Shown piece by piece: positions 2,212 to 25,524 of a DNA stretch of 64,000 nucleotides. Source of the stretch: Bispira polyomma (Eukaryota); NCBI GenBank assembly GCA_965649765.1, contig OZ287756.1, positions 38,440,001 to 38,504,000 of the forward strand, given 5' to 3'. Numbering within the stretch: position 1 is the stretch's first letter; every line of letters begins with the position of its first letter. The notes under the pieces were generated by a model, which did not search any database, was not told where the DNA came from, and saw only the letters and a program-made list of their open reading frames with translations. The position numbers and the translations under genes were made by a program.

Positions 2212-4297
2212 TGTGATGACCCAGTCATTGCGAGTACTAATTGGGGACTCGTGCTTACGATATATCTCTTATTAATGGAAGTTATGAAGCGAGAATTGGT
2301 CAATTGCTAGTATGTTAGGTATATACTAGTATTTTACTTCAAAATAAGGCTGTCATTCACTAAATTCGTAGCATTTTCATCTGTTTTACAATATTTTCTC
2401 AGAAGCGAGATCCGCCATCTTGTGATGACGTCATCACCTTATATATACACTGGTCGGTGTTGTTTACTATTAGGGCGGTGTGTTCCGAGCGGTGTTCGGG
2501 CCATTTCGGGAGCTGAGTGATGCATTGTGGGGACTTTTTCTTCTGGAAACAGCCGATTCACATCCCGAAGCTCGTCGTTTGGTCTCTATATAAGACTCGG
2601 TGTAGTTATTATTCAGCGGTGTTCTAGCCGGGGCCAACGGAAGGTACATCCATTTCTCGGATTTATTCTTATAATATTCTAATTTATTCCGGTTCGGTTC
2701 ATTCTTTTCGGATCCAAATCTCTTAATTTATATCATTAATGTATTCAAATATAGTGTGTAACTTTTATCCAATTTAATTGAGGTTTTGCTATTTATCTGC
2801 TAATTATTGTCAGATTGGGGGTTTTCCCTCCCTTTTTGTTGATCAACAAAATCTCATGTTTTTGACAGTTCTTACAACTTGTGGTATATTTTAGTTGTGA
2901 GATATAGTAATTGATAATTACTCATATAGACACATGTAATTTGCTGCTTTGCATCGCCGGTCTAGGTGTTTATTATAATGTAACTTGAATATTTGTCAGG
3001 CGGTATGTTTTTGTCAGGCCTAGCTTGTTGAACTATATAGACTGTAATTAAATAGGTTGACATTAATTGTAGAATATATAGTGTTGTTCTTGGTATTTTT
3101 CCACTGCCACCTAGCTGTCTTAAATTTTATATAGACTGGTGCATTTATATTGTTGTTTTTCCGGGTTATTGTACCGTATAATTATATGTACACTTTTTGA
3201 TTTATAATATACATATTGAAGTTAATTTTGTTGTTCTTAATTTGTAATTAAAAGTCATCTTGTGAGTTTATTGATCCAGGCTTCAATAACCCCCAGCTTA
3301 TTCGGTGACCTTGCCTATACGAATCTGTTATCTGGCGACCTGCCTACTTGAACACAACACGAACTGATACTTTATTGAGACTTATATCTTAATTTGGTCA
3401 GCTGGGCTAAACAGAATTTTGGTGCCGTGACCAGGATAGGCAAACTTAAATACAAATAAATATATTTTAATTTTTTTTTTTTTTTTTGGTATAATTGTAA
3501 ATTGCTGTTGACATTTGGCGATGACACATGGGTGTACCGCCTGGTGATGTATTAGTAATTGTACAATAACACAGAGGTGTACATGGTGAATGTACAGTAA
3601 ATATAGTGTGCATGTATATGTGTATGTGTCACTGTTAACACTAGTATTAACACATTGGTGTATTATAATTGGTGATATAAAACAGTGATTGTTTAAATGT
3701 GTCTGACTGGTCCCTCAATACACACATAACAAATTACCCAGGGGTGTTTGTGGTTGAATGTTATTACCGTTAACACATAGTATTCATAAACCAAAAATGG
3801 TATTTACATGAGGTGAATATTATGGTGGTATAAAACAGTAATAAACTGTGTCTGTGAATTGCTGCTGTTAACAGGAGTATTTAGTCAACCAAAAATGGTA
3901 CTTACCTGAGGTGAATACTTGGTGGAATAAAACAGTGGTTGATTGTGAACATTCCCTACAAATAACTTACATGTGGAATACACACTAAGGTGACATCACA
4001 AAGGTTATTAACCAAGGTGAACACTGGTGTGAACAATTTCTGTCCTGGTCATATCTAAATTTTTACGCTTTTACGCATATAGCATTGACCGGAATCATAC
4101 GGAGATAACAAGGCAACATTTGAGCTACATTGGTGTTGCAAGCTAGTATTAACAGTAGGAAATCTAAAAGCTGGATCCAGGTTATGTCGGACTGGATTCC
4201 TAAATGGCCAAAAAGACAGTCAGGCGACCGATTAATTACATCCGGTCTTGAGACTTATATCTTAATTTGGTCAGCTGGGCTAAACAGGGTCGTTACA
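2212..4297 (+). repeat. Long terminal repeat with unusual internal structure
   Basis: Imperfect terminal inverted repeats TGTGATGACCC / GGGTCGTTACA. Also a 16-bp palindrome with a CRE core (GTGATGACGTCATCAC, 2422-2437), TATA-like motifs near 2439 and 2587, and a 40-bp direct repeat at 3375-3414 and 4248-4287. Confidence 0.75.
3420..3437 (+). promoter_or_regulatory. Primer-binding site complementary to the tRNA-His 3' end
   Basis: TGGTGCCGTGACCAGGAT is the reverse complement of the invertebrate tRNA-His 3' end (ATCCTGGTCACGGCA-CCA), recalled from known tRNA sequences. Confidence 0.85.
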
Positions 4298-7230
4298 CTT
4301 ACAATGGAATAGAATTAGGTGAAATCACATATTTCGAAAATTGTTTTGAGGTAAACGTTAACATCTTTGATAAAAAAATTCATAGTATTGTGCAAATAAT
4401 ATATTGTTCAATGGAAAAATATAACGATACAATGAACTTAAATTTGCATGAAAAGCATCTAAGTTACATTGATAATATGTCTTTAATTGCTAATAAGTAT
4501 CAATGCCTACAATGCGAAAAAAATTTCAAATCCAATTATCAACTGAAAAGACATGTGGCTGTATGTTACAACAGAACGAAGTATGATTTATCCGGAGGCT
4601 TTTACCATATCCTTAAAAATATCTTTTAGAAACTAGAAGATTACGGTATTAAGAGCAAATTACAAAACTACCCATACTTTGCAGTTTTCCATTTTGAAGC
4701 TATGTTACTTACTTATGATAATCCTCGGCCAAATGCTAAATTAAAGTATACTAAGATTCATTAGCTAATTAGCGTCTCAATTTGTTCTAATGTAAGGGGA
4801 TTTACAGAACCTAAATGTATTATAGATGAAGACATTAATGCTATGGTAAGTGAAATGGTTGATTATTTAATAGATATGGCCAATGAAGCCTTTATACAGG
4901 CTCAGGACAGATGGAGGGATACTATAGAGCAGATTAATACTGTTAAATATAGTTTTCAACTAGTAAATGAAGAACCTCTTCATTAATTTGAAACATAGGT
5001 TTCTGATTATATGAATCAATTACCTGTTCTAGGTTTCAACAGTGGTAAATATGATATAAAGTTGATTAAGACTCACCTTGCTAAACATCTGGTCAAAAAT
5101 AGCGAAAAAGATCAATACACTATTAAAAGGAATAACAACTAGTTATGTATTAGTACTAAGCACCTACATTTTTTGGATAAAACGAATTATATAGGACCAG
5201 GTTTTAATTATTCTAAATTTTTAAAATGTTATGAGGCTGGCAAGTAAAAAGGAGTTTTCCCTTATGATGGTTGGATAGTATTGAAAAATTGAATCATCCA
5301 AAAATACCACCACATGAAAGCTTTTATTCAACTCTTAAAGGACATAATGTATTAGAAAATGAAAAGAACTACGAATACATTTTAAAAGTATGGAAAGATA
5401 ATAACATGAAATCATTTAGGGATTATCTGATTTGGTTTAATAATCTTGATGTAAAACCTTTACTACAGCAGTATCTAAGATACAAAAGCATTATTTTCTA
5501 AAAAATATTGACATGTTTAAAAATTACATATCTGTCCCTGGAATAGCGCGTAACTTGTTATTTAAATCTACCAATAAACAATTTAGCCTATTAACAAAGC
5601 TAATATTGATCTATATTATACTTATAAGAATGGGATTGTTGGGGGCCCATCCATAAATTTCCGGAGATATCATGAAGTTAACAAAACTTATATACATGAT
5701 AATAAACTTAAAATTGTAAAAAATATAGAAGGACGGGACACAAATGCTTTATATGTTTGGGCAATATCTCAGAAAATCCCAACAGGTTTATTTGTTAGAC
5801 ATAGATTAGAAAGGAATTTTGCACCTGAAGTACTAATTACGTATCTAAAACAATACATATGGCTTGACTATCTGGCAGAACTAAAAGGTATTAAAATTCA
5901 ACATAAACTAAATTGTGGACAAGAATTTAAAATTGGACCTTATTATGTCCATGGATATGATGCAGAAAACATGAAAGTTATGGAATATTTAGGCTGTTAT
6001 TTTCACTATCATGATATTTGTCCTCTTATTAGGAACATAAAAAATCCAAAATGGCATGCACGTAAGAATAATGAACCAAAGATAGAACTTAAAAGGAAAA
6101 ATTTTGTCAAGTCGCTTGGGTATAATGTTATTAAAATGCATGAGTGTCTGTATCTTAAAGAAATTAAACCACATGTTAGCCATGTAAATGATCATTATTT
6201 GCCACCATTTTATAGAAAACATAAAGGAGAAGTTTCATTCAAGACGTTGATAAAAGCTATAATAAATGAAGATATTTTTGCTGTTTTTGAAATTGATGTA
6301 GAAATACCAATTACTGATGTAACTTATGATGCTATTGGACAACATATGCAGAAATATGTTATTAGATTTAATGTAAAGCAGAAACAGCGATATTTACTGA
6401 TTGGTGGAGTAAAAGCCAAACAAATCTTATTGGCTAGTTCCTTGGTAAAATAGTACTTAGAGCACGGATTGACAATACCTCATATTTATCAAATCATAAA
6501 ATATGTGCCTAGCACATGTTTTTATAATTTTACTCAAAAAATATGTAATGAACTTAGGAGCGGTGATGCCCTAGCTGATAAAGCTTTATTGGCTGAGGTT
6601 GCAAAATTAACGGATAATTGTTCATATGGTTGTACAATTATGTCTAAAGAAAAACATCTTAATATTAAGTACATTAAAGGTGAATTAGAGGCAAAAAAAG
6701 TTAACGTACCAACATTTAAAAACCTAACTGAACTTGACGATGAAATGTTTGAAATTGAGAAATATAAGAGTAAAATTAAATTAGATATTCCAATTCAAAT
6801 TGGTTACTTTATTCTGCAATATGCTAAATTGAAATTATTAGTGTTTTATTACGATTGTTTGGATTATTTCATTGATCGTTTAGATTATGATAAAAAGCGA
6901 TACTGACATTGAAAATTATGCTTTAAGTATTGCAGGACAAGTGGACTGTTTAAATTAGAAAAGGAATGTACCAAAATTATTTGTCTGGCTTCTAAGACTT
7001 ATATCATGAGTCAACATGACAATACAAATAAAGTATCTTGTAAAGGAATTAGTAAAAACAATCTATCTAATAGTATGGAGTTATTTAACCAAGTCTTAAA
7101 TGTAGGTTTTCGGTTACATGATACAAATATCTTTACCTATTTACTAGAAAATAATGGTTTTTCGTATTATTATGTTAAAAGGGAAGTTATCGATGACGGC
7201 ATCAGAACAAAACCTTTACAAATAACATTA
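4298..7230 (+). pseudogene. Protein-primed family B DNA polymerase (pPolB), many stops and frameshifts
   Basis: N-terminal C2HC finger (CLQCEKNFKSNYQLKRHVAVC); exonuclease GFNSGKYDIKLIK and GVFPYD/IEKLNHPKIPPHESFYSTLK; IVGGPS; DTNALY; KLTDNCSYG; IGYFILQYAKL; GLFKLE; SCKGIS. The DTDS motif appears deleted near 6890. A VSR-like insert lies at about 5850-6200. Confidence 0.93.
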
Positions 7231-7637
7231 AATCCTTGGAAAGACCTAATTAATGTGGTTGAAAAAGATCACAATCCCTTAGCTAATACATATATTTATC
7301 CACTAAAAATTAATGATATAACTTTTAAAAAATATTCATATTTGTTTTAACTATATAAAAAATAAATACATTAATATAAAAACAATGCAAGAATGGTATG
7401 AAATTAGATATGCAGTAATGTATGAAATGCTATATAAGAAACAAATACAATGTTCCTCTTTTAAGAAACTTTTAAGAGAAAGCCAAAGGGAATTATATAT
7501 CTTACAACATTGATACTGATTTATATTGAAACACTGGCCTGTTTAAAAACATACTGCAAGTACTTGACAAGAGATCTTATGCTGGACAAAATCAAATGGG
7601 AATACTGTTAATGAAATTAAGACAGCATTTCTTCTAA
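7230..7637 (+). pseudogene. NADAR-like domain, starting in frame with the pPolB C-terminus
   Basis: HNPLANTYIYPLKINDITF ... EWYEIRYAVMYEMLYKKQIQCSSFKKLLRES ... DTDLY*NTGL ... YAGQNQMGILLMKLR, read across two frameshifts and two stop codons. Confidence 0.7.
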
Positions 7638-8283
7638 TGATTCATTGAATAATGATTCAATTTGGGATCCTGCAAGCATATTAATATCTGGTTGTAGTAA
7701 TTCAGGTAAAACAAATTTTTTTGTGGAAATTACTTGATTTCAAAAATTACTTATTTGTTAATCAACCCCCCAAAAAATTATATTGCTACCGCATATGGCA
7801 ACTAAAATTTAACGAATTAAAAAAAGATCTAAATATAGTATTTAAACAAGGTCTGCCTGATGAAACTGATGGCCATACATTAAATGATAAAAATCACACT
7901 ATCTGCATTATTGATGATTTGCAAAATGAAGTAGCTAATAGTAAGTTTGTGGAAAAAATATACACTGCATATTGCCATCATTATCATATCTCAATAATCA
8001 CTGTCTTACAAAACCTTTTTATCAGCGGAAATGTCTACGCACTATCAATCTAAATAGCCATTAAGTTATACTATTTAATAACCCTAGAGACATAAACCAA
8101 ATCAGATATTTGAGTCAACAATTAGGAATGTGTGAACTTTTAATGGAGGCATTCAAAAACTCTAATGAACAAAAATATAACTATCTCCTAATAGACTTAT
8201 AACCTCATTTCAATTGGAAGTATAAATTAAGAAGTCACATATTACTGAATGAAGATACTATAGTATGTATATCATCGAAGTAA
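7637..8283 (+). pseudogene. A32/FtsK-like packaging ATPase
   Basis: Walker A ILISGCSNSGKT, Walker B ICIIDDLQ, HHYHISIITVLQNLF and FNNPRDINQI. The start overlaps the upstream stop (TAATG). Confidence 0.9.
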
Positions 8284-8590: not shown

Positions 8591-9030
8591 ATGAATAAAT
8601 TTGTTCTTGTATCATATGACAGATATTTAGAATTAAATAATAATTCTAAAGCAAAGATTTGAATATTCAGTTGATGAAACAAACTGAACCTAAAAATAAA
8701 TTATTAAATTCGAAAAGTGCAGAAATTGAACCCGACACTGAATTAGATATTCAGTTAATGAAACAGACTGAACCTAAAAATGACTTATTAAATTTAAAAA
8801 GTGCTGAAATAAAATCTAACACTGAAATTTATGAACTCCCAAAAAATTTATCAATACAAACCAGTCAAAGAAACAATCAAGCAAGGATCAAAATGACATC
8901 AAGCTTTATAAGAACAATTTATTAAATCAAATAAGTGATAATCAAATACCTCCCCCAGGGTTACCAAATATTATAATAAAAGACTTTCTGCATTAGAATA
9001 TTGGACTCATAATTGGATTATACAAATTAA
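8591..9030 (+). pseudogene. Polinton hypothetical protein (MNKFVLV...PPPGLP...W) with an internal 84-bp duplication
   Basis: Frameshifted ORF between the ATPase and the integrase; IQLMKQTEPKNxLLNxKSAEI occurs twice. Confidence 0.5.
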
Positions 9031-9041
9031 CTGAAAAAAAC

Positions 9042-10058
9042 ATGGTAGACAAAAAAAGGAATTAGGTAAAATTAAAGAAGATTATTTACAAGAACTATAC
9101 TTTAACCCTGATCACCCAGCATTGTACAGTGGTTTTAACAAGTTTTAATTTACAAAAAAATATAATAAACATAAGTTCACAATTAGGAAGATAAAAGAAT
9201 GGCTAGGACAGCAAGATACTTATACTTTATATAGAGCAATTAAAAGAAAATTTAAAAGGCCAATCACCATAGCTGTAAAAAAGATCAACAATGGATTTCA
9301 GATACAGCCAACATGATCTAATAAGAGAAACACAATAAAGGATTCAAACATTTTTGTGTTGTCATCAATACATTGACTAGATATTTATGGACATTTTTAA
9401 TGAAGACAGTAACAGGATTAGAAATGAAAAAGGGATACAACAAATCTTAAATGAAACAAACCCAAATTTTTATTCACTGACCGTGGGTCTGAGTATAATG
9501 GTAAAATCTTTAAAAAGTATCTGAAAGAAAACATAATCATAATTTTATGACTAACAATGAAACGAAAGTATCAATGGCCGAAAGGGTAATTAAAACCATT
9601 AAATTAAAACTAATTAAAAGAATGTCTTATAATAATAACCTTATATGGTATGATGGTTTAAAGGATTAAAAAGTTCACCACTGCATATAATAGTTCTAAT
9701 CATAGAATACTAAAACAATCTCTTAAAGAAGCAAGGAAAGAAGATGACTATGACCTCTGAGAAAAACTATGTATAAAAGAAAAAAATAGTTTCAAAGAGA
9801 ATATGACGAACGATTTTCAGGTGAAAATTTTTATGGTTGCTGACAGACAGATTAATCAAGGCAAAGCCAAGTATAAACTAAAAGATCTCAATAACGAATT
9901 GATAGGTGGTTATTTTTAAAATCCAGAATTACAAAGGGTATATCGGAAATACCACATATTGTATAGAAAAAATTATAAAGAAAAGAAAAAGAGCAGGAAA
10001 TACAGAATACTTAGTTAGATGGGAAAACTGTTCTTCTAAATTTGATAGCTGGACTAGA
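9042..10058 (+). pseudogene. Polinton retroviral-like integrase with C-terminal chromodomain
   Basis: LQELYFNPDHPA, WLGQQDTYTLYR, TDRGSEY, MAERVIKTIK; chromodomain IEKIIKKRKRAGNTEYLVRWENCSSKFDSW. Confidence 0.92.
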
Positions 10059-10074
10059 ACAAAATGTAACAGAC

Positions 10075-10480
10075 ATAAATTTCAAAGACATATTGTTTTA
10101 TATATATTTACAATCCACAAATTCTAAAGATTTACATCCACAAAATCACGCATGGGACTTCACAATTGATTCACTTATTTTAGACGACACATGGTACACG
10201 TGGTACACATGGTGGGCTAGCAGAAAATATTCTATGATAATAGTATTGATAGTGAGGATGTATATGTATATGCTGATCTCATACAAGAAAGTTTAGTTGA
10301 AGATTGTTATAGACCAATACTACGGATAGTTAGACAGAATATATCATTTATTATAGTGTACTTAAAACCAATAGGAAGAGAATCAATTAACAGAATCAGA
10401 ATATATATAAATAGGAAGAATTAAACTGATCCAGCTAGTAGTAATAAGACTACAGTATGTGTACTATATTTTACTAAGAT
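10075..10480 (+). pseudogene. Minor capsid (penton) protein
   Basis: FYIYLQSTNSKDLHPQNHAWDFT matches the Polinton penton N-terminal pattern (FY..L.S..S...P.N....F). It lies between the integrase and the major capsid gene. Confidence 0.7.
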
Positions 10481-10488
10481 AAATAAAA

Positions 10489-10716
10489 ATGGTTAATTGG
10501 GAAGACATATGTAACAGCATTAGGGGGGGAACTGAGCCATTTAAAAACACTATATATAGTATGGAATCAGACGAGGGAGGGACAAGTAATTTTGAGAAGA
10601 AGGTTACTATAGTATCACCTAGTGAACAACAGGTAGATATGGCTAAATCACAAATAAAGAAAAAAAAGAAACGATCACGTCATATCATTAAGAAAAAACA
10701 AATTGGAAAAAGATAA
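10489..10716 (+). CDS. Small basic, putative core/DNA-binding protein
   Basis: IVSPSEQQVDMAKSQI followed by a K/R-rich tail, directly upstream of the major capsid gene. Confidence 0.55.
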   Translation: MVNWEDICNSIRGGTEPFKNTIYSMESDEGGTSNFEKKVTIVSPSEQQVDMAKSQIKKKKKRSRHIIKKKQIGKR

Positions 10717-10836: not shown

Positions 10837-12170
10837 ATGATTTTATATTATTTAAATCAGAAATATTTAAATCAGAAACAGGAATGTAATACAAGAAAAA
10901 GTAGCATTATTTCAACCACCTTTGGTTGATCCTTCAATTGACCATATTGATTGGGTCGAGTACAGACCAAGTGGGCAAGTGAAAGACGATAGTGTTATTG
11001 AAATTAACGTCCCTGGTGATGGTGCAGATTATATTGATCTGAAACGCAGTCGGCTTCGTGTAACTTTTAAAATTGTAAAAGCTGATGGGTCTCCAATTAC
11101 AGATGCAGTATGGCAGTAGGCCCAGTATATCTTACCCTACAATCATTATTTCACCAAATGGATATATCTCTACAACAGATAAATCTATCGGCTAGAGTTG
11201 GTATTAATTACCCATACAAAAGCATTCTACACGTTTGGCTTCATAGTGGGTATAGTGATACTCTAACCTTAATGAGAGGAGAGTTATTTATAAATGATCA
11301 GGCTGGATATTATGACAATGTAACTGGAAATACCAGATTTCAATATAGACGAATACGCTGTAGTTTAAGTCAAGAAGTTGATTTATATGGCCCTTTAATG
11401 CTTGACTTAGCACAAAAAGATAGGCTTATTCTAAATGGTGTTCAAGTTAATTTCAAACTATATCCGAGTCACCTATGTCTGCTGCTACTGATACTGAAAA
11501 ATTGAAATGTGAATTAACACATGTCAGCATTGATTTATGCCAGGTAAAACTAAAACCAGAATTAGTTTTACCTCATGCTAATGCATTAAAAAGAGGTCCA
11601 GCTCTATATCCCTATGGGTGTAGCGAATTTAAAGGTTTTACAATTCCTAAAGGAACTAGAAATTGGAGTAATGATGGTACTTTTCACGGATCTGTACCAA
11701 GCCAATTAATCATACGATTTGTCCCTGGTGAAGCATATGGCGGGACATATCATAGAAATCCTCTAAATTTTGATCATTTTAATTTAAGCTTTCTAGAATT
11801 CACTGTAGATGGTATATCTGTCCCAGCTAAGCCATTCAAACCAGTATATATTACAAGAGGTGATTCTAGCATGACTAATAAAGCTACTAGTGGAAAATAT
11901 ACAGAGGCCTATAATTGTCTCTTCTTACATAAAGATGTCAACAATATGACTACTCTAATTGATTTCGGAGACTACCCAAATGGTTTCTGCTTGTATGGTT
12001 TCAATATTGACAGCAATATTGTTGGTGACCTACATAGTCATGTTAAAAAAGGTCATATCCGATTAACCGTAGATATTGGAAAAGATTTAGGTGAGAGTAT
12101 AAATGCTATTTTATACGCCAAATTTCCAGCTATATTAACTATTGATGAGGCTAGAGTTGTAGAAACATGA
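10837..12170 (+). pseudogene. Double jelly-roll major capsid protein, frameshifted
   Basis: LFQPPLVD...WVEYRP...IEINVPGDGADYIDLKRSRL, LQSLFHQMDISL, YPYKS, RLILNGV, NPLNFDHFNL, YPNGFCLYGFNI. Confidence 0.92.
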
Positions 12171-12609
12171 ATACCATTGAATTAAAATGAATTATGTTAA
12201 ATGATCCCCATATTATAATTTTATGGTGGAGTTTTAGCAGCAAATGAGTTACTATATAAAATTGCTGATACACCAAAGGCTTTAATTGTTAACACCAAAC
12301 CACATCCTCATGATGGTGAACATTGAATTAGTATCTTCATATTTAACAATTATATAGAATATTTTGATTCAGCAGGTAATAATGCCCCCAAAAACATTTG
12401 AAAATTTCTTATTAAGACATCAGGATAAATATTATAAAAACAAGGATAGATTACAAAGCTACATAAGTTCAGTATGTGGTGAATACTGTATTTTCTACTT
12501 GTATCATCGCTCAAGCAGCAAATCGATTGAGAATCTTTTAAAACATTTTACTTATACTTATCTGAAAAACGACAAAATTATCATAAAATTTAAGAATGCG
12601 TTGAATTAG
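12167..12609 (+). pseudogene. Adenain-like cysteine maturation protease
   Basis: IVNTKPHPHDGEH*(W), EYFDSAG and RLQSYISSVCGEYCIFYL (H/D/Q/C). ATGA overlap with the capsid stop codon. Confidence 0.9.
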
Positions 12610-13576: not shown

Positions 13577-13920
13577 AGTTAGGTAATTAGTCATTTATTT
13601 TTTAAAAAATGACATCAGATTATACAATAACAGTTTGATGTAACCAGTTATTTTTAAATGTATGACATCACTTGAATGTTTTATTATAGAATATACCATA
13701 GAAAAGGTTAGGTATGTTTTTTTTAAAATGACATCAGATGAAATTATGCAATAACAGTTGATGTAACCAGTTATTTTAAAAAATATGACATCATTGAAAG
13801 TTTTATTGTACAATATACCATAAAAAGGTTAGGTAATTTGTTATTTTAAAAAATGACATCAGATGAGATTATGCAATAACAGTTGAGGTAACCAGTTATT
13901 TTAAAAAGTATGACATCAGA
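13577..13920. repeat. ~120-bp tandem repeat (about 3 copies) with six TGACATCA motifs
   Basis: The unit GTTAGGTA...AAAATGACATCAGAT...CAATAACAGTTGATGTAACCAGTTATTTTAAA...ATGACATCA recurs. Confidence 0.85.
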
Positions 13921-13988: not shown

Positions 13989-14753
13989 ATGGCAGAACCA
14001 ACTATTACTCAGAAAGGAGACCTGATTCTGGTATCCAAAAGAAATGAAGACGCTGTATCGGGGCTTTTCAACAATGAGATGTGTCAAGCTGCTTTCAGTG
14101 TCAACCAAACCAAGGCAGAGGCAGAACAAAAAAAAAGGAACTCCAGAAAAAAATTCAAGATATTCACAATTGGGAGTACAATAGAGGGATGGGTCTTAGT
14201 TGGCTGGACTATGAACTGTATGACAACAGCCTGGAGAGCTCCCGGACTTGGCCCAAAGCCTTGAGTGTACAACCAGATGATTTGGCTAAAGCTGGATTTG
14301 AGCACAGTGGAAAAGGAGACAGATGTAACTGCAGTTGGTGTGGCTTAGTCCTCCAGTCGTGGAACTATTTTGATGAACCATTGACTCTACACAAGAAAAA
14401 CAATCCATACTGTGAGTTTATACAAATGGTTCAACTAACCAGAGAGCACTGCACAGACTGGGAAGACATGAAGAAATATACATGACAACAGATTGGCCAG
14501 CTGTAAATCATGGTCTGATCGCAAGGGCTTGAAACCTGCACAGTTAGCAAAGGCTAGATTCCTCTACACTGGATTCGGGGACAAGGTGAAATGTGTGTGG
14601 TGTCAAGTTACGCTTGATTGTTGGGAATATTTTGATGATCCAATCACAGAGCACCAAAGGCATAAGAAAAAGAACTGTTGATATCTAGATATGATACGCC
14701 CAAGCGGGAAGGTTAAAATAAAGCAATCGAGCAATAAATTTCTTGAGCAATAA
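13989..14753 (+). pseudogene. Intronless inhibitor of apoptosis (IAP), 2 BIR domains, no RING
   Basis: LAKAGFEHSGKGDRCNCSWC...HKKNNPYC and LAKARFLYTGFGDKVKCVWC...EHQRHKKKNC. ATG at 13989; frameshifts near 14135 and 14485; AATAAA downstream. Confidence 0.9.
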
Positions 14754-23744: not shown

Positions 23745-25524
23745 ATGCATCCTGATCATATTCTGAAAAAGCGCATGCAGTATGATGCTGAACACCTAAC
23801 ATTTGCTTTAAGGGCAGTTTTAGAAGAAAGTCATTCAGTTAGAGGTTTTGCAAAGCTGTACAATGTACCTTACACTACCCTTTCTGATAGAGTAAATGGC
23901 AGAGTACCAATTGATAGTACAGGTCCAGGCCCAGCACCAGTATTAAGTCAGCCAGAAGAAAGTAAACTTGCAGATCATATTTTACACATGTCTAGCATTG
24001 GTTATGGTTATACCCGCTCTGATGTTATGGGTATTGCTGGAGAATATTTGTGTAGCATGGGTAGGCGTGAAACTGGCAAACCATTATCTGACAAATGGTT
24101 TTATAATTTTATGAAACGGTGGCCAGAGTTGAGGGTGATCAAACCAAGTGGTTTAGAATTGATTAGGGCTAGAAGCACAACTCCTGATATCATTACTAAG
24201 TACTATGTTGAACTTCATGATATGTTTGACAGACAAGCCTGAGTGTCTGTACAACATTGATGAAAAGGGTATTAACAGTGAGCATAAACCTCCCAATGTT
24301 GTCGGTGGCCCAAATTCGAAACCCCAATCCCTGATTTCACCTAAAGGTACCACAACTGTCATTGCATGCGGTAATGCAAATGGCATGTCAATTCCGCCGT
24401 TTTTTGTTTTCAAAGGTGTCAGGTTTCTTCCTGAACTTCTAAACAATTCCCTTTCTGGTTCTGATGGAACTGTATCGGATGGCCAAACAGGATGGTCAAA
24501 CAGTCAAATCTTCAAGACCTATCTTGATCACTTTTTAAGGTACAGCCAGGGTCAGGGTACAAAGCTCATACTTTTTAATGGGCACAGATCACATGTAAAC
24601 CCAGACACAATAGCCTGGGCAAAGAGTCATGACATTGTTCTTTTTGTTCTCCCCCCACATACTTCTTGGGTATTACAGCCATTAGATGTTGCCTGTTTTG
24701 GTCCCTTTTCACGCCAGTACCATCATGAAGCAAAGAAATTTATGGCAGAACATCCAGGTCAAATTATTACAAGGTACAATGTTGCAGAAATTTCTTCTAA
24801 GGCATACAGTGTAGGTCTTTCTGCTACAAACTTGAAAAGTGCTTTCAAGAAATGTGGTATTTTTCCATTTAATCCAAATGCATATGACTCTGATAAAACA
24901 CAGTCACACACTCTCTTTAGCACAGACAACTGTGAATCTGATCAAGAAATGGCAGAAATAAATGTCCCACAGAATGATGACCCAGTACCAGAAATCTCTG
25001 TTGATTCTTTTTTGAATCAAAAGGTGATTACTGCTAAAACAGTCAGGAGTAAATTTCTGCCACCAAAACCTAGAAACACTTTGAGTAGAGTCATCGCAGG
25101 TAAGGCAGTTACTGAAGATGATGTTGTGACAGACATTACCACTCATCTGTCACAACATAAAGTGTCTTGTAAAAAAACAACTGATGTCACCAAAGAAAAG
25201 GGTAAAGGAAAGGGTAAAGGCAAAAAACCTAAGGCAAAATTTGTCCCTCCATTAAAAAATGTAACGTCAGCCACTTCTGGTCCTTCAAATGTTGAAAGTC
25301 CACCAGAGATCGAAGAAGATGGCGACATTGAAGAAAGTGAGTGTTGTTGTATCTGCAAAAGTTTCTACCCCCCAAAAAAATCAAATTTGGATCACTTTTT
25401 TATTGTTAACTGGGACCAATGTAACCAGTGTTCACATTGGACACATTTGTCCTTCTGCACAAATATTAGAGTTCTCAGGAGGCATAGTGTGTTTCTATGT
25501 CCTCACTGTAAAAATGAACAATGA
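23745..25524 (+). pseudogene. DDE_1 transposase: HTH-psq, CENP-B HTH, DDE and C-terminal PHD finger
   Basis: YNVPYTTLSDR, SDKWFYNFMKRWP, YNIDEKG, ILFNGHRSH (catalytic D reads as N), LQPLDVACF, and CCICK...WDQCNQCSHWTHLSFC...CPHC. Frameshift near 24230. Confidence 0.9.

Follow-up and report, generated by a model that had tools for sequence, protein, structure and literature searches.

The window, as we call the whole 64,000-nucleotide stretch of Bispira polyomma DNA analysed here, carries a decayed Polinton, all of whose recognised genes lie on the forward strand. Its polymerase gene, a pPolB–NADAR pseudogene at 4089..7637 that was delimited by frameshift-aware alignment to an unbroken relative, is followed by broken genes for a packaging ATPase (7652..8274; Walker A motif and synteny) and an integrase (9062..10055; tblastn E = 7e-42, syntenic with the unbroken C2 element), names that we assigned by motif recognition. 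Next come two small conserved genes (10096..10713), the first of which we take to be, probably, a minor capsid protein gene, then a gene that presumably encodes the major capsid protein (10886..12164; tblastn E = 7.5e-141) and one that we label as an adenain-like protease gene (12231..12591). These genes are also broken, and the small genes and the protease gene were matched to the C2 element. The broken set of pPolB, integrase, ATPase, capsid and protease genes is syntenic with that element, and the fold of the pPolB matches that of adintovirus PolB. A BIR/IAP anti-apoptosis cargo gene with two repeats (14051..14750; PF00653, E = 7e-16) is likewise shared with the C2 element.

Two of three relatives that we extended have terminal inverted repeats (239 bp at 100% identity and 158 bp at 99.4%) with AGT repeats at their ends, and the flanks of the extended relatives agree at five of the six bases expected of a 6-bp target duplication. 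For the window copy, which is syntenic with one of them, a search of positions 1–24000 found no terminal inverted repeats. The element also holds short tandem repeats at 13596–13918 and 8656–8823 (units of about 124 nt and 84 nt, respectively), and outside the Polinton there is a DDE transposase ORF of 453 codons (24163–25524; PF03184, E = 2e-12).

The polymerase gene in the window

The window copy is a broken fossil of a Polinton pPolB–NADAR gene, with 17 breaks in the polymerase gene. These breaks were counted in a frameshift-aware alignment of positions 4089–7622 to the ORF of an unbroken relative (L066), which gave 614 identities over 1,279 columns and spans the residues of the relative from about 381 onward, leaving out its N-terminal part. 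The C-terminal motif of the polymerase, VKREVIDDGIRTKPL (7174–7218, forward strand), lies in a frame (6913–7350) that meets no stop before HNPLAN (7270–7287) and reads on into HNPLANTYIYPLKINDITF, as the preliminary description of this DNA had said. The broken NADAR-fold domain that this frame enters (7240..7637, forward strand) was recognised by Pfam fragments and by frameshift-aware alignment to relatives. Its two later pieces, in other frames, each match NADAR (PF08719) as their sole Pfam family and stand in the correct order, also as described, at profile positions 82–117 (E = 0.04) and 141–161 (E = 0.054); each match is weak alone, and the fragments by themselves score under the curated cut-off. 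Two frameshifts and two stops had been counted in this part. Alignment to two unbroken relatives retained both frameshifts (near 7327 and at 7475–7490) and only one stop (7527–7529).

The TAA at 7635–7637 had been said to overlap the ATG of the ATPase gene. It does overlap an ATG, but a stop comes three codons after that ATG; in relatives, the ATPase start aligns with the ATG at 7652, which overlaps a second in-frame TAA of the NADAR frame (7650–7652). An identical stretch of 40 nt occurs twice in direct orientation, at 3375–3414 and 4248–4287 (873 bases apart), close to the gene's decayed 5′ part, and probably marks a past insertion or duplication.

Unbroken copies and the predicted fold

A polymerase with a C-terminal NADAR domain is made as one protein in a large group of Polintons, and the fusion is genuine. 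A search of the 1.03-Gb, animal-type genome with the junction peptide yielded 319 candidates; 150 of these were scored, and every one of the 150 matched. Eight copies are single ORFs of 1,256–1,823 codons with the domain at the end, which bears out the expectation of one continuous PolB–NADAR ORF in intact copies. When seven unbroken ORFs from the genome were scanned with PF08719, all scored between 27 and 55 bits and five exceeded the cut-off of 35.1; all six database proteins scanned also exceeded it. We surveyed 60 genome loci, a few of them overlapping and one of them the window itself. At 32 loci the frame was open from the polymerase end motif to the last NADAR motif, and at 19 the first break came 30 codons or more inside NADAR. 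Two loci stopped within 30 codons, both with flagged internal stops, and seven were left unscored because the pattern used did not find the end motif. Chance resemblance to NADAR is ruled out by the unbroken single-frame copies and their PF08719 scores, and later insertion into the window copy by the unbroken genome copies that carry the same fusion.

Polymerases of other subfamilies (L067–L070, L072 and L106) lie tail to tail with the protease gene and still end in NADAR, which assigns the domain to the polymerase. It cannot be part of the ATPase gene, as it lies in the polymerase frame also where the protease gene adjoins. Gene overlap had been offered as proof that the domain is native, an argument that fails in these tail-to-tail subfamilies, which keep NADAR without that overlap; that the domain is part of the viral gene layout nevertheless holds, given single frames in unbroken copies, the profile scores and the predicted fold. 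Separately, two identical polymerase–NADAR C-termini lie inverted about 2.4 kb apart at C9:50141463–50147045 (L042/L043), either a palindromic Polinton derivative or an inverted duplication, and similar inverted pairs occur at C11:52.81–52.84 Mb and C11:26.19–26.20 Mb.

Outside this genome, PF08719 was already annotated on 6 of 15 matches. Together with the 150 best results of a profile search, those matches make up a set of 164 database relatives: 57 have a NADAR tail by a motif rule (not a frequency, because the search profile favours fused proteins), 75 end at most 40 residues past the polymerase motif, tails of another kind occur in 9, and 23 were left unparsed. A pattern scan of IMG/VR produced 40 matches, none of them a relative. 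The polymerase motifs are intact in most rows that cover them (PolB in 49 of 52, PolC in 54 of 59), and an insert with a DG motif follows Pol A, with a weak match to REase_MTES_1575 (E = 5e-4) in one of seven ORFs. In most relatives a short linker of similar length follows the polymerase end motif, and the NADAR tails of P0025, P0033, P0047, P0049, P0077 and P0084 are heavily shortened. By eye, P0032 has two tandem partial NADAR-like repeats after the polymerase. An extra Cys-rich (CxxC...CxxC), zinc-ribbon-like tail extends beyond NADAR in P0005, P0007, P0029 and P0040.

We modelled the C-terminal 332 residues of one natural, unbroken copy with AlphaFold2, using an alignment of 46 sequences, and obtained a model of the polymerase end and NADAR with pLDDT 90 and pTM 0.56. 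The model shows the fused tail as a YbiA-like alpha+beta NADAR fold, in keeping with the fold first proposed. Its only Foldseek matches in the PDB at E ≤ 0.001 were YbiA and 8BAU, and VIA-align placed it on the Phytophthora NADAR 8BAU over 133 residues (Z 13.8, rmsd 2.3 Å) and on E. coli YbiA (2B3W; Z 11.1), with the N-terminal half matching phi29 polymerase (Z 5.7). An ESM Atlas feature search likewise returned NADAR clusters at 0.92. Predicting the polymerase and NADAR domains as a complex, without an alignment, gave a score of 0.00 and no verdict. When one fused domain was compared with PDB sequences by phmmer, the NADARs were missed and only chance matches to ribonucleotide reductase appeared; active-site numbering was therefore transferred through a LINE NADAR aligned to 8BAU.

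Active site, selection and ancestry

Residues are numbered as in 8BAU (excerpts of PMC11543638). Among 69 fused domains (57 from databases and 12 from the genome), the E125 column, where active NADARs (YbiA, BC4488/DarG1 and phage gp30.3) have a catalytic Glu, Asp or His in the last strand, holds Glu in 1 (P0080), Tyr in 25, Phe in 15, Asn in 12, other residues in 15 (His once, in P0030) and a gap in a single misaligned domain. The catalytic Glu is thus absent from 67 of the 68 scorable domains. The ribose-binding E43 is kept in 19 of 69 and the phosphate-binding K50 in 21, and the lid residues K75 and G78 in 1 and 4, respectively. W89 (58 of 69), R93 (31), D130 (38) and W133 (38) form the pocket floor and bind phosphate in the solved structure (excerpts of PMC11543638). 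The segment that stacks the adenine and caps the phosphates, which bears K75, G78, R79, Y84 and D86 of the Phytophthora NADAR, is deleted in the window's clade. The window NADAR itself lacks the adenine-binding lid, carries Tyr where the catalytic Glu would be and keeps equivalents of K50, W89, R93 and D130, with the Lys at K50 and a His at E43 adjacent to a frameshift. Mutation of D171 (D171A/N) or K95 (K95A), the latter corresponding to K50, impairs the activity of the E. coli C7 NADAR (same excerpts).

Apart from D130, no substitute acid is conserved in at least 45% of 61 rows. The mean net charge of the fused domains is +1.0 per 100 residues, not above that of LINE NADARs, and so gives no sign of a gained DNA-binding surface. 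The best-kept positions lie chiefly in the hydrophobic core or are Gly or Asn residues of turns, and retention of W89, W133 and G-x-N-x-x-G may reflect folding alone. Host LINE NADARs served as a control, and 31 of the 32 retain the catalytic Glu motif; the sample is biased in consisting of top-scoring Pfam matches. Judged by these residues, NADAR is predicted to be catalytically dead in nearly all fused proteins, and ADP-ribose binding in the window's clade is doubtful because the adenine lid is lost. The exception, P0080, retains E43, K50, K75, W89, E125, D130 and W133; its closest relative, the sister protein P0165, is an unfused NADAR of 171 amino acids with Glu at the E125 column. The active base de-ADP-ribosylase of the preliminary description is not supported for this lineage or for nearly all the others, with one catalytic Glu in 69 domains and a lid segment missing from the window's clade, and its own caveat, a divergent or binding-only domain, is the better reading.

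The NADAR tail is under purifying selection. In five chosen pairs, dN/dS of the domain was 0.43, 0.15, 0.22, 0.13 and 0.30, with the upper 95% bound below 1 in all five (the widest interval, for the L065/L066 pair, reached 0.93); the adjacent polymerase gave 0.10–0.20 in four pairs and was saturated in one. All 36 pairs among nine ORFs were compared for identity and divergence, and NADAR diverges faster than the polymerase core (identity of 85% versus 93%, and of 49% versus 71%). Fusion is clustered on the polymerase tree (FastTree, 150 rows), with 10 changes between fused and unfused states compared with about 50 when labels were shuffled. On the NADAR tree, of 75 rows after 8 short or misaligned rows were dropped, the 61 fused domains and the unfused P0165 form one branch (SH-aLRT 100) separate from 11 LINE and 2 bacterial rows, a single-origin branch that long branches may inflate and that has just those two rows as its bacterial outgroup. 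The simplest reading of the trees is a single capture of NADAR followed by several losses; a second capture is possible, because most neighbours of P0080 on the polymerase tree are unfused. Few free NADARs came out of the searches for them (1, 1 and 2 sequences), so the outgroup is thin and the donor is not named by the NADAR tree. As to LINE ORF1 as the donor, only forks with weak support place the fused branch among LINE rows.

Possible roles and known systems

On balance, we lean slightly towards the fused NADAR being a catalytically dead module tethered beside the polymerase, likely gripping nucleotide or DNA. An ancestor of this pPolB group would have acquired an active NADAR on a single occasion, its probable use being the removal of ADP-ribose from guanine of the viral template. 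Catalysis would then have been lost in most lineages, mostly with an aromatic residue in place of the acid, while the core was kept and the pocket floor (W89, R93, D130 and W133) was kept more often than not. The domain might now help to retain the template, the product or a base that carries ADP-ribose, or else shield it from host readers, and would be useful yet dispensable, because several lineages shortened or dropped it. Here we infer the ancestral activity, the use of a ligand and the benefit. Counting against a binding module, the changes of state on the polymerase tree (at least 10) and the heavily shortened tails fit slow decay.

A bolder version, which we offer tentatively, makes the domain a dedicated defence against ADP-ribosylation: an active eraser in the P0080 lineage and, elsewhere, a reader or decoy of ADP-ribosylated guanine that shields the template or lets the polymerase pass. 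If this were true, invertebrate hosts would turn DNA base ADP-ribosylation, through CARP-1-like enzymes, on DNA viruses and transposons, and the mass of LINE ORF1–NADAR elements in the same genome would also be explained. A Scabin-like family search found no match in the host genome and none in the control genomes either, and is thus uninformative about a host writer enzyme.

It seems unlikely that the tail is instead a structural or protein-interaction appendage, stabilising the thumb or recruiting a viral or host partner with its pocket unused. The hydrophobic core and turn residues that dominate its best-kept positions would suit such a role, as would the deleted lid in the window's clade, the short linker of similar length and the precedent of a NADAR repeat without catalytic residues in C. 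elegans SNA-3 (excerpts of PMC9303266). However, 31 of the 61 fused domains have retained R93, a position where the LINE and bacterial NADARs (13 in all) mostly have another residue, D130 is often kept too, and a two-domain pTM of just 0.56 makes no fixed orientation evident.

An active glycohydrolase that strips guanine ADP-ribose from the template ahead of the polymerase, countering host enzymes of the pierisin/CARP-1 type, with divergent members using other chemistry, is improbable as a general account. The catalytic Glu is missing from 67 of 68 scorable domains, and even its replacement by Asp or Gln abolishes the activity of SCO5665 (E167D and E167Q; excerpts of PMC12945103); K50 is missing in two thirds, a conserved substitute acid was not found and the window's clade has no lid. 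The residues of P0080 (E43, K50, K75, W89, E125, D130 and W133) and the Glu of its unfused sister P0165 argue the other way, as do the His at the catalytic position of P0030, which phage NADARs also have (excerpts of PMC11543638), the CARP-1 homologues found mainly in bivalves (excerpts of PMC12945103) and the NADARs of nidovirus replicase polyproteins (excerpts of PMC9503650). For the ancestor and for P0080, an enzyme remains plausible. Very improbable, finally, is a near-neutral relic kept merely to fold harmlessly and vanishing lineage by lineage: recurrent losses and truncations and evolution faster than that of the polymerase core (85% versus 93% and 49% versus 71% identity) fit it, but a single stop codon would delete a C-terminal domain cost-free, yet dozens of clusters less than 50% identical keep it, and its dN/dS in three pairs (0.13–0.22) is near that of the polymerase (0.10–0.15).

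A catalytically dead module beside the polymerase, our preferred reading, would make these proteins a NADAR family that is selected yet disarmed, with an active-looking natural member for comparison. In searches for NADAR or YbiA together with polinton, maverick, adintovirus or protein-primed polymerase, none of which took in subscription papers, Repbase annotations, figures or bioRxiv supplements, we found no paper on a pPolB–NADAR fusion, and the earlier remark that none had been described agrees with this. NADAR has no occurrence in PMC8502044 or bioRxiv 2026.10.13.758929, and NADAR and YbiA are absent from the text and one supplement of PMC10748475. The pPolB architecture has so far comprised TP-vOTU-EXO-PALM and nuclease inserts, to which NADAR is an apparently unreported addition in a widespread subgroup. 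The Polinton pPolB2 with inserted VSR that Jeong et al. (2023, PMC10748475) describe in molluscs and a marine nematode shares the protein-primed PolB with its Exo and Pol motifs, the Polinton gene set, inverted repeats and, to judge from the weak REase_MTES_1575 match, a nuclease-like insert after Pol A; HNH and VSR inserts are described there without NADAR, the comparison being by description rather than alignment.

The Polinton domains share the fold of YbiA-subfamily NADARs (8BAU, 2B3W and S. coelicolor SCO5665) and often keep W89, R93, D130, W133 and the terminal G-x-N-x-x-G, but they are Glu-less in 67 of 68, have mostly lost K50, have a diverged or deleted lid and are attached to a DNA polymerase. 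Nidovirus replicase polyproteins likewise place NADAR inside a viral replication protein in invertebrate hosts, but nidoviruses are RNA viruses and their polyproteins are cleaved; the NADAR survey that reports them covers phages, NCLDVs and RNA viruses, and its passages concerned name no Polinton or DNA-polymerase fusion (excerpts of PMC9503650).

NADAR is also found on mobile-element proteins, in Ectocarpus Gypsy Pol and oyster Tx1 ORF1 (excerpts of PMC12477816), and the LINE ORF1–NADAR layout of the latter is abundant in this genome. A genome-wide search gave 2,147 LINE NADAR candidates, and all 150 that were scored lay above the cut-off. In elements such as L008:613–1950, L020:1498–2823, L073 and L074, ORF1 ends in a canonical NADAR and is followed by an ORF2 with an APE endonuclease, and at least 10 variants under 80% identity occur among 32 loci. 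With the oyster Tx1 precedent known (excerpts of PMC12477816), what stands out here is the scale and the intact catalytic set. The LINE NADARs keep that set, whereas the Polinton domains form a separate branch. Polintons and LINEs, which are unrelated, thus each carry NADAR on a replication-linked protein in one animal genome, and this two-element pattern opens to testing a long-standing question, the purpose of animal DNA-ADP-ribosylating enzymes and animal NADARs.
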